The translations under genes and the position numbers were made by a program. The notes beneath the pieces are model-generated. The model was not told the DNA's origin and did not search any database. It was given only the letters and a program-made list of their open reading frames with translations. A stretch of 64,000 nt of DNA from a virus, in the UHGV virus genome UHGV-0092003, one strand, 5' to 3'. Position 1 is the stretch's first letter. Every line of letters starts with the position of its first letter. This document shows positions 12,020 through 16,224 of this stretch, in pieces.

Positions 12020-12212
12020 TTAAAATTTCTTCAACTATCAATAATCATAGTTGACACGAAAAATAAACAAAAAACAACGAATTAGACAACATAATCAAGT
12101 TAAAAAAACCTAGAAACAAAATACCAAAATGCATTATTGTATCTATGTGTAATTGAATAATCTCAGATATAAGCGCTTGTTATTATAGAATCACTCAAGG
12201 AGAGGCAAGGAA

Positions 12213-12743
12213 ATGCATACGCACAGCAAACAATCTAAACATTGCGGCTTAAAGTTAGTTAGTCAAAGTGCCCTACTTTCTTTATTAATTCTATCAACTC
12301 AAACATTTGCAGCTGGCACAGCTGATCCCGTAACAATGGCGAACAAAGCTGGCTTTACCAACTGTAATTCTCTAATTAGAGATGTGTTTAGATTTTCCAA
12401 AGATGCTCAGGAAATGAGAACAAACACCAGATATAATAACGAAACAGTAAAGGAAACCATTGATATAGATATGTCCTTTGGAAAAACTGGAGACACCATT
12501 GTTCAATCGACTCATTTTGAACGGAGAGGTGGGATGTGTTATGCATATTCTAGCATATCGTTCAATCAGCAAGGTAGTTGCGTCGGTATCATGAGTAAAG
12601 ATGGAAACGAGTATGTTGATGAGAGCGCTGGAACTATTTGGGCCAAGAACAAGCTAGGCGCAATGAGAATTATGACGCAAACAGGAGACGTCTGTACCTC
12701 TAACTTTTTTGCTGCTAATCAGATGAAACAGGATCGTTATTAA
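12213..12743 (+). CDS. Secreted protein with signal peptide (176 aa), AT-rich moron-like gene
   Basis: Signal peptide LLSLLILSTQTFAAG; low GC relative to its neighbours; it has its own AT-rich upstream region and terminator. Confidence 0.55.
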   Translation: MHTHSKQSKHCGLKLVSQSALLSLLILSTQTFAAGTADPVTMANKAGFTNCNSLIRDVFRFSKDAQEMRTNTRYNNETVKETIDIDMSFGKTGDTIVQSTHFERRGGMCYAYSSISFNQQGSCVGIMSKDGNEYVDESAGTIWAKNKLGAMRIMTQTGDVCTSNFFAANQMKQDRY

Positions 12744-12791
12744 ATGCCAGTTCTTATTTAGCAGCTAACATTACATCACTTTATTAATTAA

Positions 12792-12818
12792 AATGGGGCG
12801 CGAGCCCCTTTTTAATTT
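12792..12818 (+). terminator. Rho-independent terminator
   Basis: GGGGCGCGAGCCCC followed by TTTTTAATTT. Confidence 0.6.
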
Positions 12819-12890
12819 CATGGACTTCATAAATCCCAATCTATATGATCTATGTCTATCGCAGATAGAAAATATGAGATTTAAATAAAT

Positions 12891-13199
12891 ATGGATAAAA
12901 ATGAAATGCGCAATTTCCTTCTACAGCAAGGTTTTTTGAGAGTGCGGCAGCTGGCCGACGATAGCTGGATAGGTGTGCTTAGGCTGGCATTCACGACATC
13001 AGTTTGCATGGATATTGACGAAGTAACCCCCTTCCGTTATCGCTGGTGTTTCGCCGATCCAGCTGAAGCAAATCACTTTTTCGAGACGGCCGTAGACTAT
13101 GATGAAGTGCCAACTAAGCGCGATTCGTTGAAAGGACATCGGTATGTTGGCGAGCCACTGCTGCGCGAAAAGGATGAGTTCGGGTATGATAAATGGTAA
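12891..13199 (+). CDS. Hypothetical protein (102 aa)
   Basis: ORF. Confidence 0.45.
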   Translation: MDKNEMRNFLLQQGFLRVRQLADDSWIGVLRLAFTTSVCMDIDEVTPFRYRWCFADPAEANHFFETAVDYDEVPTKRDSLKGHRYVGEPLLREKDEFGYDKW

Positions 13200-13218
13200 A
13201 GCCCCGTTAGGGGCTTTA
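13199..13218. terminator. Bidirectional hairpin terminator between convergent genes
   Basis: AAGCCCCGTTAGGGGCTTT. Confidence 0.5.
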
Positions 13219-13635
13219 CTTGACTTTCGGCTCGCATACCTGCCAATGACTTGATACTAATGATATACCAAGATCTAACTCTTTTGGGTCAAATGGATTT
13301 TCATTTCTGAGGCCAGCATTTACCAAAACTAATTCAGTATCACTTTCGGCGTTATACTTAATTCTGCCACCTTTTACAACGGAGTATCTTGCGGCAGCAT
13401 GTGGGTTATTGAATTTGTGACCACTAGACAGTTTAGCTGTCACTGGCCCGACAACACTCAGCTTTCTCATTTCTTTAAGAATGGCGAGGCTTGCATCTAC
13501 ATCTTGCTTAGTGGCGTCAACTGTCTTGCCTTCTAGACGGGCTTCGCGAGCACGGAGCATACGAGCTGCACGTCTATCCAACGCAACCTGCATTGAAGCA
13601 GTGCGTTTAGTAGCATTTTGGCGTTCGTAAGACAT
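13216..13635 (-). CDS. Hypothetical protein (139 aa), second gene of a minus-strand two-gene cassette
   Basis: Overlaps the upstream gene by 29 nt; basic N-terminus; no motif recognised. Confidence 0.5.
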   Translation of the reverse strand: MSYERQNATKRTASMQVALDRRAARMLRAREARLEGKTVDATKQDVDASLAILKEMRKLSVVGPVTAKLSSGHKFNNPHAAARYSVVKGGRIKYNAESDTELVLVNAGLRNENPFDPKELDLGISLVSSHWQVCEPKVK

Positions 13636-14071
13636 AACCCCTCCTGTCCGGATCCAGTCCTGTTTCTATCGTGAAGCCGCGTCCTAAATGTCTTGCGACA
13701 AGTCGTTTGTACACAGCTTCTAATTTGTCATTGTCAGGCAAAAAAACGTACATTCCTGCCTTGTATTCATTATAGTGGTCACGAATCGCTCTTTCAACCG
13801 TCCTCATGACGCTGATAGCGCTGACCGTACCTAATTCAGGGCGATCAAAATAGGTTCCATTTGCCAGGTTTTCAGCCAGGTCAAATGAGATCTCCCAGCA
13901 CCCATTAGGGCTAAAAATATACCCTTCAGGGAAAATCACTGAAGAATCAACAAGATTAAATTCTGAAATGCTCTGAAGGTTCAGCTCATACTCATGACCA
14001 TTTGAGAAAAAAATAGCTGTATGGACACGAGAGTAAGCCGAGAACCTCATGGTTGTAAACTGTGTAACCAT
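13607..14071 (-). CDS. Hypothetical protein (154 aa), first gene of a minus-strand two-gene cassette
   Basis: ORF transcribed divergently from the recombinase gene. Confidence 0.5.
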   Translation of the reverse strand: MVTQFTTMRFSAYSRVHTAIFFSNGHEYELNLQSISEFNLVDSSVIFPEGYIFSPNGCWEISFDLAENLANGTYFDRPELGTVSAISVMRTVERAIRDHYNEYKAGMYVFLPDNDKLEAVYKRLVARHLGRGFTIETGLDPDRRGYVLRTPKCY

Positions 14072-14195
14072 CTAAACAATTTCCTTTTTTACATAGTTTA
14101 AACCGGAACCGCGGTATTTTTCGACCGAAATTAGCAAAAAAAATGAGGCGCCAATGACCCTGGCAGGATGTCTGTTTTTTGAAAAATCGGCATTT

Positions 14196-14226
14196 TGTGA
14201 TTCCATACTTCTTAGGTATGGAATCA
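14196..14226. promoter_or_regulatory. Perfect 12-bp inverted repeat GTGATTCCATAC-N7-GTATGGAATCAC in the divergent promoter region (operator candidate)
   Basis: Read directly from the sequence; a second palindrome ACTGTACATACATACAGT lies at ~14281-14298. Confidence 0.4.
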
Positions 14227-14314
14227 CTCCAAAAAAACGGTTACTCTGGGTTGACCTTACAGATAAAATACCGTTAAATACTGTACATACATACAGTTAA
14301 TTGGGGAGGCAGCG

Positions 14315-15349
14315 ATGTTAAATTCGTTCGAAGTCGACAAAGCTTTAGAAAATTGCTCTGTTGAAACAGTTCAATATCTCCAGCGCTGCCAAAACCTGAC
14401 AGGCTCACAAATGATGGCCATGGATGCCGATTCGAAATTCAGTGAAGCCTTTATGCTTTTCACTCGTTTATCACTCCTTGTGACTCGGCGGCGTCCAGAG
14501 CTGGGTGTTCACTGTATTCTCGTTCACGCCATGCCGGTTATCGGCGACAAAAAAGTTTCAGACATCAACCGCCTCACCGTTAACAGGCTAATTAACGCCT
14601 TGGTGTTGGATGGCAAGTTAGTACAAAGCCGTCGCGTTTTTTCTGTTTTAAAACAGTTCCTTGGGTGGTGCGAGTTCCAGGGTGTGATCGAAACCTCACC
14701 ACTCGGGGCGATGTCTCTTAACAAAGTCGCCGGCGGGTTGAAACCAAAGCCGCGTGATCGAGTGTTGTCGGATGATGAGTTAGAGAAGTTTTGGCATATG
14801 TGGGATTTTGCCGATGTGTCTGAAAGTACACGCTGGGCGGCGCGTTTCGTTCTCTGCTCTGCAAGACGGCCAGATGAGGTGCTTCGGGCTAGAGTTTCCG
14901 AGTTCGATCTTCACAATAATGTATGGAATCAGGGTAGCAGGAATAAGTCTGGCCGTGAGCATTCACTCCCGATCAGCCCTGTAATGAAGCTGTGCATCAA
15001 TAAAATGATGGCAGCTGCGGGAGATAGTGAATGGCTAGTCCCCTCCCCAAAAGACAGCATGAAGCCTGTTTCAAAGGTTCTGATATCTCAAGCCTCAAGG
15101 AGGATATTGAGTAAAAAGTATCTTTCTGAAAATCTGCCGGCACCCTTCGAAATCAGAGATTTACGAAGAACGGCCAGAAGTACGCTGTCTCGCCTGGGTG
15201 TTGAGCAAGATGTGGCTCGCAAAATCATGAACCACAGTCTTGACGGCATTGATCGCGTTTATAACAAACACGACTACTTGGATCGAATGGCGGAGGCGAT
15301 GGCTGCGTACTCTGAATTCTTAACAAACACATGCAGAATCAACCACTAA
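14315..15349 (+). CDS. Tyrosine recombinase / integrase (could be a plasmid dimer-resolution recombinase)
   Basis: C-terminal catalytic region RDLRRTARSTL...HSLDGI...VYNKHDYLD fits the R..H..R..Y pattern of tyrosine recombinases. Confidence 0.7.
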   Translation: MLNSFEVDKALENCSVETVQYLQRCQNLTGSQMMAMDADSKFSEAFMLFTRLSLLVTRRRPELGVHCILVHAMPVIGDKKVSDINRLTVNRLINALVLDGKLVQSRRVFSVLKQFLGWCEFQGVIETSPLGAMSLNKVAGGLKPKPRDRVLSDDELEKFWHMWDFADVSESTRWAARFVLCSARRPDEVLRARVSEFDLHNNVWNQGSRNKSGREHSLPISPVMKLCINKMMAAAGDSEWLVPSPKDSMKPVSKVLISQASRRILSKKYLSENLPAPFEIRDLRRTARSTLSRLGVEQDVARKIMNHSLDGIDRVYNKHDYLDRMAEAMAAYSEFLTNTCRINH

Positions 15350-15644
15350 TGCCTATCTTTTTCTTCAGAGCCTCGTTTTCATCTTTGATTTTTTTAACAA
15401 ATTCATAGACTTCAGGAATCCTCTCAGACAAATACATCATCATAAATTCATCTGGTGGGGCGCCGACTGCTCGTGCAAAAGGTATAACCTTGTCAACTGA
15501 CAAATGGGCGCGGCCAGATTTGATGAGTGAGATGTTGTTAGCATTCTCAAATCCAATTTCTTTCGCGACCTGGGCTTGAGTTTTCCCGCTAGTCATCATT
15601 GCCGCTGTCATGAACGGGCGGTAGCGGCCTTTAGGCTCTTGCAT
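15339..15644 (-). CDS. XRE/Cro-CI-type HTH transcriptional regulator (repressor candidate)
   Basis: HTH QAQVAKEIGFENANNISLIKSGR; convergent with the recombinase gene; a large AT-rich intergenic region lies upstream. Confidence 0.7.
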   Translation of the reverse strand: MQEPKGRYRPFMTAAMMTSGKTQAQVAKEIGFENANNISLIKSGRAHLSVDKVIPFARAVGAPPDEFMMMYLSERIPEVYEFVKKIKDENEALKKKIGISG

Positions 15645-16224
15645 ATTCTGTTCTGCCTTGTATTGAATTATCAGTAGTAAGTAAGTAACTACATATTTAT
15701 GTATTGCTCAAGACTAAACCACTGCATCAAAAATGTAAACCCACGCCGCCAACTTTGAATTGCGGCAGGTTAAGAATCACAACAAAACACATATGTCAAT
15801 AGGCACAAGGAGCAATATTAGTGTAAAATTCTTGTAATTATTAAAAAAAAAGAGTAGTTTCTACAGGAATCATTTTAGGACATACTAATAAACAACAACC
15901 TATTTAACGGTATTAACATGAATGCAATTTTGAACTGGATGTCATCAGCCGAGAAGCTATCCTCCACCACGGTCAATGATCAGGTAGGAGCTGATATCAT
16001 TTGTGATCTAGGCGCGGAAGATAAGTCATCCGAAGGCTCTGACGATGTTTTTTTTCATATTAATCATTTAAATAAGGAATTCGTTTTAATTCAGAGATTG
16101 TCAAGCTACACCCTCATTTGTACTCATATCGCCTAATATCTCACCCCTTTCTTTTTGGCTTTATACTTTCATTGATTATGATTATCATATCCATAAATAG
16201 TAAGCACTTATTTATGGGTATGGT

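Follow-up and report, generated by a model that had tools for sequence, protein, structure and literature searches.

Two overlapping genes on the minus strand of a 64,000-nucleotide stretch of viral DNA (virus genome UHGV-0092003; hereafter the window) form a conserved unit, which we propose to be a toxin–antitoxin-like module of reverse gene order. The upstream gene, A, encodes a protein predicted to adopt a deviant GCN5-related N-acetyltransferase (GNAT)-like fold, and the downstream gene, B, encodes a highly basic protein whose reading frame overlaps the 3′ end of A by 29 nucleotides (Table 1). A preliminary description of this DNA, made from the sequence alone, had placed the pair at these positions and suggested a toxin–antitoxin, abortive-infection or anti-defense function for it, as part of an accessory island with an inverted repeat in its promoter. 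The functional proposal gains circumstantial support, and the pair is indeed conserved as a unit; the island proved not to be one unit, and the repeat does not belong to the cassette. We favor the reading that A and B constitute a type II toxin–antitoxin-like module with the effector encoded first, serving plasmid addiction, abortive infection or both, and we give this reading an even chance of being correct.

The association of the two genes was surveyed in the DNA of 24 A-family genes from more than 20 distinct loci. At the 3′ end of A, 24 of 24 carry an overlapping open reading frame (ORF) of B type in another frame, and the overlap measures 14–53 nucleotides in 22 of the 23 loci scanned. 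At locus L038 the scan picked a non-overlapping start for B, and the genes as called overlap by 35 nucleotides; at L044 the overlap is 23 nucleotides. Conservation of the pair in all 24 cases, and the lack of any match of A or B to a structural or housekeeping family, were the two outcomes on which the preliminary description had made its proposal depend. Two small, co-oriented and overlapping genes in one operon are also the arrangement characteristic of type II toxin–antitoxin systems. The type of B follows the subfamily of A: the MSYER type accompanies A proteins of 154–157 residues, the MHSKHD type most A genes coding for 153–173 residues, the NINY type A proteins of 163 residues and the KKSSATMLRRKL type those of 188–194 residues. 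Such a correspondence is expected of interacting partners and suggests coevolution. Among four Klebsiella loci, the ratio of nonsynonymous to synonymous substitution rates (dN/dS) is 0.06–0.17 for A, 0.07–0.14 for the N terminus of B and 0.27–0.41 for the B tail, indicating that both are real, constrained genes with a relaxed tail. We considered positive selection on the tail and rejected it, because the tail values are relaxed yet purifying. In a K. pneumoniae phage-plasmid (L009, 3146–4523), two A–B pairs of different subfamilies stand in tandem beside the recombinase gene.

The A family is small and almost without annotation. An exhaustive profile search of 1.84 billion representatives (clustered at 50% identity) recovered approximately 130 proteins. 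Relatives of A occur in 27 plasmid records and in 86 protein clusters, all named 'hypothetical' and none with a Pfam domain, and a related-locus search with the close group of A returned only one genome locus and two viral loci. In a tblastn search of a phage collection, A, B and the 194-residue variant of A all went unmatched; the module occurs in records of plasmids and genomes and was not seen in deposited SSU5-like phage genomes. It resides on SSU5-type phage-plasmids of Klebsiella, Escherichia coli, Citrobacter and Cronobacter, on other plasmids, in chromosomes of Dickeya, Yersinia, Kluyvera and Erwinia, and in a Morganella lambdoid prophage, where it lies between cI and int, a position typical of morons. 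This patchy distribution across plasmids, prophages, islands and chromosomes is that of toxin–antitoxin systems. Full-text literature searches for DUF5486, DUF6934 and the RefSeq accessions were without result, and two papers on phage-plasmids are silent on the locus and on the recombinase site.

The expression signals of the pair favor B. The best promoter-like site of the whole region lies inside A, on the coding strand of the pair, with the hexamers TTGAAA and TATAAT 17 nucleotides apart. Nine homologous loci, as divergent as 39% amino acid identity, have both hexamers in this place, and in 9 of 9 they are kept by the same five codons (GTT GAA AGA ... TAT AAT), with a single AGA-to-AGG change that falls outside the −35 hexamer. 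By comparison, the codons of other conserved A residues are identical only 46–52% of the time in divergent pairs. Conservation of the internal promoter thus extends to synonymous sites, and transcription from it would yield B without A. The sequence leading into B, CGGACAGGAGGGGTT-ATG, contains a strong Shine–Dalgarno motif embedded in the conserved C-terminal codons of A, and A itself has only a weak AAGGAA. A conserved promoter of its own and a stronger Shine–Dalgarno motif suggest that B is built for production without A and in excess of it. At the end of the operon, a terminator-like hairpin lies between the convergent B and 102-residue genes, which suggests that it works in both directions.

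Comparison with sister plasmids revealed that the A–B pair is one of several cargo modules that vary between plasmids. The recombinase and helix–turn–helix (HTH) genes to its right are found in all 34 related Klebsiella plasmids, and in many of these plasmids the interval from grxA to the recombinase gene holds no shared sequence. The recombinase gene and its HTH neighbor are therefore backbone rather than accessory, and the single accessory island of the preliminary description, which had included both, is a mosaic of three independent cargo modules set between the backbone genes grxA and int. One module is a 176-residue gene without a family match in Pfam, PHROG, PADLOC or NCBIfam searches; it is present in L002 beside a YafO cassette and absent from L026. 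Another is a 102-residue gene, which has a 107-residue homolog at the same place in L026 and is absent from other A–B loci, such as L028 and L008. The third is A–B itself. In the sister plasmid NZ_CP057316, the slot beside the recombinase holds a toxin–antitoxin pair, consisting of a 174-residue gene and a YafO-family toxin gene, and its occupant in the most frequent Klebsiella variant is a different A-family pair, of 194 and 97 residues (A profile, E = 1e-19). Other conflict cargo lies to the left of the slot in sister phage-plasmids (L002, 1–1159; L027, 1–2097): one carries a lipid II-degrading bacteriocin and a YebF-family protein just upstream of grxA, and another has, in the equivalent place, a type I restriction R subunit. 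Because of such cargo, we regard the region as a general cargo hotspot.

The genomic neighborhoods of A–B elsewhere, and the state of the genes within them, bear on the roles of the two proteins. In Pantoea agglomerans chromosomes (L035–L037, approximately 2365–2963), a frameshift and a premature stop have made A a pseudogene, and the overlapping 47-residue B is intact; the same state is seen in contigs of several genomes. On a K. variicola plasmid (L020, 2751–5607), two tandem A–B pairs of different subfamilies lie in a defense island with TIR, DUF4238 and KAP NTPase genes. Other A–B loci adjoin an MNT/HEPN pair or a HigB-family toxin gene, and in some places the pair forms a small insertion between housekeeping genes. 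In an assembly collection, the Y. enterocolitica copy appears in approximately 2,400 indexed blocks.

No sequence search assigned either protein to a family: neither A nor B, as single proteins or as family profiles, matched Pfam, PHROG, PADLOC, NCBIfam or PDB sequences, and none of the region's seven proteins matched a component model of PADLOC-DB 2.0. Short hits to a uteroglobin fusion and to ThreeFoil, both engineered, were set aside. The statement in the preliminary description that the two proteins lack recognizable domains stands for these sequence searches and does not extend to the predicted structure of A. An AlphaFold2 (AF2) model based on 74 family members is confident (predicted local distance difference test (pLDDT) score of 84, predicted template modeling score of 0.80) and has the topology β–β–β, β4, short helix, long helix, β5, helix, β6, β7. 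Foldseek comparison with the PDB is consistent with GNAT proteins at template modeling (TM) scores of 0.4–0.5, and on this model A has a deviant GNAT (acyltransferase)-like fold. It lacks the α1–α2 arm and carries approximately 20 extra residues at the position of the acetyl coenzyme A (acetyl-CoA) pyrophosphate loop, among which only F75 and P78 are conserved in the family alignment; on inspection of the sequences, the acetyl-CoA motif Q/R-x-x-G-x-G/A between β4 and α3 is not conserved in the A family. The conserved polar residues of A are D64, N68, H99, Y121, R123, Y146 and T150. Acetyltransferase models of Pfam and NCBIfam do not match A; one of the 74 family members gives a chance-level Acetyltransf_6 match (E = 0.079), and a PDB sequence search with the family profile found nothing. 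The best BFVD matches of A, at TM scores of approximately 0.6, are uncharacterized phage proteins and, in addition, domains of very large phage proteins with Zeta-toxin, ParB or Alt-type ADP-ribosyltransferase modules. Weak profile links also lead from A to multi-repeat DUF6934 proteins.

B consists of a conserved basic, helical N terminus (approximately residues 1–55), invariant in the alignment, and a fast-evolving, variable C-terminal tail. By annotated or called starts, its length ranges from 42 to 198 residues, and over its first 45 residues the protein is basic in 20 of the 23 cases scanned. Beyond the conserved 45–55 residues, the C-terminal part ranges from absent, in proteins of 42–48 residues, to 150 residues of unrelated sequence. 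The protein is highly basic overall (pI of approximately 10) and helical, and its AF2 model (pLDDT of 47) contains helices at residues 13–35 and 43–58 only, the rest being of low confidence and unusable. The 47-residue B of Y. enterocolitica scores 25.8 bits against Pfam DUF5486, a family of small enterobacterial proteins (E = 1e-5), just under the gathering threshold of 27 bits; the B of the window and the other B types do not match this family. Models of DNA-binding, ribbon–helix–helix (RHH) and DUF1778 proteins found no match in B. A ribbon–helix–helix N terminus, to which a turn resembling G-x-T/S had drawn attention, is unsupported: no model matches, and the minimal B is too short for the second helix.

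Approximately ten A-family representatives are proteins of ~342–352 residues that join an N-terminal SIR2 domain (Pfam SIR2, E = 2e-6), with GAGxS...HG motifs, to a C-terminal A domain. The fusions are plasmid-borne, and those on Rep3 plasmids (L029–L032) and on the Alteromonas mediterranea MOBH plasmid CP004847 (L044, 5001–6165) are each followed by an overlapping B-like ORF of 42–44 residues. Their presence on marine and Alteromonas plasmids extends the module beyond Enterobacterales. Judging by their domain content, these fusions likely couple the module to an NADase.

We favor a toxin–antitoxin or defense role because a YafO toxin–antitoxin pair can occupy the same slot, because B has an internal promoter and a strong Shine–Dalgarno motif, and because of the decayed A beside an intact B in Pantoea, the defense-island locus and the SIR2 fusions. 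In the mechanism we propose, A would be a growth-inhibiting effector, perhaps an acyltransferase acting on a cellular target in the manner of the GNAT toxins TacT and AtaT. B would be its neutralizer, binding A through the conserved basic helix–Gly–strand N terminus, and its variable, probably disordered C-terminal tail could make it labile or responsive to a trigger. B would be kept in excess in two ways, by the promoter inside A that serves B alone and by its much stronger ribosome-binding site, so that plasmid loss, arrest of B synthesis or degradation of B would free A. A broader version, which we put forward tentatively and consider only a possibility worth entertaining, is that a new family of conflict modules uses a deviant GNAT-fold domain, alone or fused to a SIR2 NADase, that is silenced by a short basic helix–Gly–strand peptide from an overlapping gene. 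The hypervariable tail of the peptide would then act as a sensor or degron that releases the effector upon phage infection or plasmid loss, and in SSU5-type phage-plasmids alleles would be exchanged beside a LexA-controlled recombinase site.

Several observations weigh against the toxin–antitoxin reading. No toxin–antitoxin, defense or GNAT sequence model matches A or B. The upstream regions of A at seven loci contain no conserved palindromic operator, and autoregulation is accordingly unsupported. Some chromosomal copies, such as that of Y. enterocolitica, look fixed. Where A is fused to SIR2, SIR2 is the obvious effector, and such proteins would fit a regulatory or sensor role of the A domain equally well.

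The module would work most like the GNAT–RHH systems (TacAT, AtaRT, ItaRT, KacAT and GmvAT) and like reverse-order operons, and it differs from both. Unlike in the GNAT–RHH systems, the GNAT-fold gene here precedes that of its partner, a reversed order; A has no Pfam or NCBIfam acetyltransferase match, no recognizable acetyl-CoA loop and no α1–α2 arm; and the partner, encoded downstream, is not a DUF1778/RHH protein. In operons of the mqsRA and higBA type, the toxin gene likewise comes first and an internal promoter for the downstream antitoxin ensures antitoxin excess. The proteins are unrelated, however: MqsA and HigA bind DNA as HTH proteins and exceed their toxins in size, whereas B has no recognizable DNA-binding domain and can be as short as 42–48 residues. 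With the SIR2 anti-phage systems (Thoeris ThsA, DSR and SIR2–HerA), the family shares the N-terminal SIR2 domain of approximately ten plasmid-borne representatives. The A protein of the window has no SIR2 domain, an overlapping B-like peptide is not a feature of known SIR2 systems, and PADLOC models, run on the window proteins, gave no match.

Three other readings of the pair deserve consideration. In one of them, the pair would not be toxic at all, with A a catalytically dead, GNAT-like adaptor and B a small basic regulator binding nucleic acid or protein, the two together modulating the recombinase, the lysogeny switch or a host pathway. In its favor, phage-plasmids, the Morganella prophage and a Kosakonia plasmid all have the pair beside a tyrosine recombinase; A lacks a visible acetyl-CoA motif, shows an antizyme-like similarity and resembles a regulatory domain in the SIR2 fusions, while the high basicity and helical character of B would suit a regulator. 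We nevertheless find this account rather unlikely, as a recombinase is missing from the vicinity of many loci (chromosomes of Yersinia, Kluyvera and Dickeya; Serratia and Yersinia plasmids), the recombinase region works with a YafO cassette instead, and B matches no DNA-binding family. In an anti-defense module, by comparison, an acyltransferase-like A would modify or sequester a component of host immunity, with B as regulator or cofactor, and so aid establishment in new hosts. The GNAT anti-CRISPR AcrVA5 offers a parallel, and the BFVD matches to phage proteins, some of them domains of giant proteins resembling injected polyvalent proteins, the weak links to multi-repeat DUF6934 proteins and the presence of anti-restriction functions among the shell genes of the SSU5 group all point this way. 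This reading does not predict an obligatory overlapping partner with its own promoter, nor decay of A with retention of B; a known toxin–antitoxin pair can replace the cassette, and chromosomal copies in Yersinia, Kluyvera, Dickeya, Erwinia and Raoultella lie among housekeeping genes in no mobile-element context. We consider it unlikely.

The polarity of the pair could also be the reverse of that proposed here, with the small basic B as toxin and the GNAT-fold A as antitoxin. E. coli provides a precedent for a GNAT-family antitoxin in YjhQ, the partner of the toxin YjhX/TopAI; A is encoded first, in the usual antitoxin position, and B has a short, highly basic core, for which nucleic acids or ribosomes are conceivable binding targets. 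The expression logic and the Pantoea pseudogene make this polarity unlikely: with its conserved promoter and stronger Shine–Dalgarno motif, B would be the more highly expressed partner, and destruction of A beside an intact B would be lethal or strongly counter-selected were B the toxin. Moreover, B evolves faster and varies in length, as antitoxins usually do. Overall, we judge reversed polarity highly improbable and retain the toxin–antitoxin reading with A as effector and B as neutralizer.

Table 1. Features of the A–B cassette and its surroundings (window coordinates).
Feature	Position	Strand	Description
Gene A	13607..14071	-	ORF, 154 aa; first of pair; deviant GNAT-like fold (predicted); proposed effector/toxin
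Gene B	13216..13635	-	ORF, 139 aa; proposed neutralizer/antitoxin; overlaps 3′ end of A
A–B pair	13216-14071	-	ORFs; third cargo module
Promoter inside A	13769..13797	-	TTGAAA-17-TATAAT, 11/12 matches; 133 nt upstream of the B ATG
Shine–Dalgarno motif of B	13640..13645	-	AGGAGG
Terminator-like hairpin, end of A–B operon	13196..13219		10-bp stem including 6 GC pairs; minus-strand call
176-aa gene	12213..12743	+	ORF; Sec-type signal-peptide-like N terminus, MHTHSKQSKHCGLKLVSQSALLSLLILSTQTFA/AG, judged by eye only; separate cargo module
102-aa gene	12891..13199	+	phrog_24748, E = 3.5e-37; separate cargo module
Inverted repeat (12-7-12)	14197..14227		GTGATTCCATAC N7 GTATGGAATCAC; perfect 12-bp arms; repeat search
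LexA-box-like palindrome	14279..14297	+	TACTGTACATACATACAGT (TACTGT-N8-ACAGT); overlaps recombinase −10/start region
Tyrosine recombinase	14315..15349	+	344 aa; backbone; Pfam Phage_integrase PF00589, E = 1.9e-10; phrog_1, E = 3.9e-42
XRE-family HTH regulator	15339..15644	-	101 aa; backbone; Pfam HTH_3, E = 6.4e-5; phrog_8

The recombinase next to the cassette has a Phage_integrase catalytic domain (41 bits, above the PF00589 cut-off of 27.1 bits), lacks an arm-binding domain and is conserved in all related plasmids. The HTH gene, which overlaps it tail to tail, is kept beside it in all relatives. We aligned the DNA upstream of int from six phage-plasmids, three from Klebsiella and one each from Citrobacter, E. 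coli and Cronobacter, one of the six carrying the YafO cassette. The arms of the 12-bp inverted repeat are near-invariant, only the outermost base varying, and the 7-bp spacer is variable; a TTGA(C/T)C −35 hexamer and a palindrome of CTG-N10-CAG type are also conserved. Homology between the plasmids ends approximately 20 nucleotides to the left of the repeat, where the variable cargo starts. The perfect repeat reported in the preliminary description thus exists, with a spacer of 7 nucleotides, and its assignment to a divergent promoter shared by the cassette and the recombinase gene fails: it lies approximately 95–125 nucleotides upstream of the likely −10 of A and belongs to the recombinase block. 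Because it is conserved with the recombinase in plasmids carrying other cassettes, it is not the operator of this one, and we rejected a role as cassette operator or shared promoter element, as the repeat stays with the recombinase whatever the cassette.

Such a 12-7-12 site beside a short, arm-less tyrosine recombinase is built like a simple recombinase core site. It may be the core site at which this recombinase resolves multimers or exchanges cassettes, and it may equally be an operator. The short, arm-less recombinase and the repeat directly upstream of its gene, with near-invariant arms and a variable spacer, recall sites of the Cre/loxP type; this likeness concerns the neighboring recombinase only. 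Allowing one mismatch or fewer, the window contains four copies of the arm against 0.24 expected. A third exact copy of the arm GTGATTCCATAC lies at 8931–8942, in the orientation of the left arm at 14197 and 74 nucleotides downstream of a tRNA-Phe predicted by ARAGORN; an exact 12-mer copy of this kind is not expected by chance in 64 kb. Copies with two mismatches or fewer (for example, 12183–12194) number seven against 4.4 expected, which is chance level. The LexA-box-like palindrome, which we take to fit the LexA box consensus, is unique in the window (0.02 expected by chance), and its CTG-N10-CAG core is kept in six of six aligned plasmids, a pattern that suggests SOS-inducible expression of the recombinase. 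A LexA-like box over the promoter and variable cargo beginning approximately 20 nucleotides beyond the repeat also liken the neighboring recombinase, and it alone, to a LexA-controlled integron integrase. Unlike in an integron, a search beyond the cassettes, on the side away from the recombinase, revealed neither a second full 12-7-12 site nor an attC-like site. With no second full site found and degenerate arm copies at chance level, an integron-like arrangement is no more than a possibility, and the chance-level copies leave integron-like cassettes bounded by relic half-sites unsupported.

Two perfect copies of a 14-bp motif, AATACCGTTAAATA, lie in inverted orientation to each other, one at 14267–14280, over the spacer and −10 of the recombinase promoter, and one at 15901–15914, just upstream of a 72-residue ORF at 15918. 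L009 has both copies as well; together they probably serve the XRE regulator as a pair of operators.

The region is 100% identical to K. pneumoniae plasmid pMB7868_2 (NZ_CP103584.1, 111.6 kb), and the six ORFs of the preliminary description agree with our ORF calls and with the RefSeq annotation of that plasmid. The DnaE-like polymerase of the window shares 67% identity with its counterparts in Salmonella phage SSU5 and in related Klebsiella and Escherichia phage-plasmids, and on this basis we assign the window to the SSU5-type phage-plasmids. The other regional claims fared unevenly. The GC content of 12020–15700 is indeed lower than that of its flanks (42.8% versus 48–49%), mostly owing to the 176-residue gene (39%) and to intergenic stretches (31–38%); A is at 43%, B at 44.5% and the recombinase gene at 48%. 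The strand arrangement is likewise unusual, as the only minus-strand genes in the first 28 kb are those for HTH, A and B and one gene cut by the start of the window. Of the terminators said to bound the region, one is present at the left edge, as a terminator-like hairpin at 11984–12007; a hairpin scan of the region found none at the right edge, and the other two hairpins, at 12795–12808 and the end of the A–B operon, are internal.

An Rfam scan of 8–17 kb found no RNA family within the A–B cassette. At 8775–8857, ARAGORN called the 83-nucleotide tRNA-Phe (GAA) mentioned above, a call that we consider doubtful because Rfam gives only a sub-threshold tRNA-Sec-like score (23.7 bits against a cut-off of 47 bits). 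At 10530–10721 on the minus strand, antisense to the 3′ end of phoH, there is a match, significant although sub-threshold, to the Yersinia antisense small RNA Ysr251 (56.6 bits, E = 8.5e-13; gathering score of 100). A weak, below-threshold Phe_leader match at 11979–12093 on the minus strand (E = 0.011) overlaps the grxA terminator hairpin and is most likely an artifact.

Phage-plasmids of the SSU5 type are often encountered in clinical Klebsiella, E. coli, Salmonella and Cronobacter, yet their maintenance and their exclusion of competitors are poorly understood. Nearly every SSU5-type member that we examined has some allele of this unnamed pair beside its recombinase gene, from a family of approximately 130 representatives that has neither published nor database annotation. 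If A–B is an addiction or exclusion module, it would explain the persistence of these plasmids. It would also represent a new toxin–antitoxin architecture, in which a GNAT-fold effector is encoded first, a minimal peptide of approximately 45 residues neutralizes it and an antitoxin-only promoter lies inside the toxin gene, and the SIR2 fusions would tie this architecture to NAD-depleting defense.

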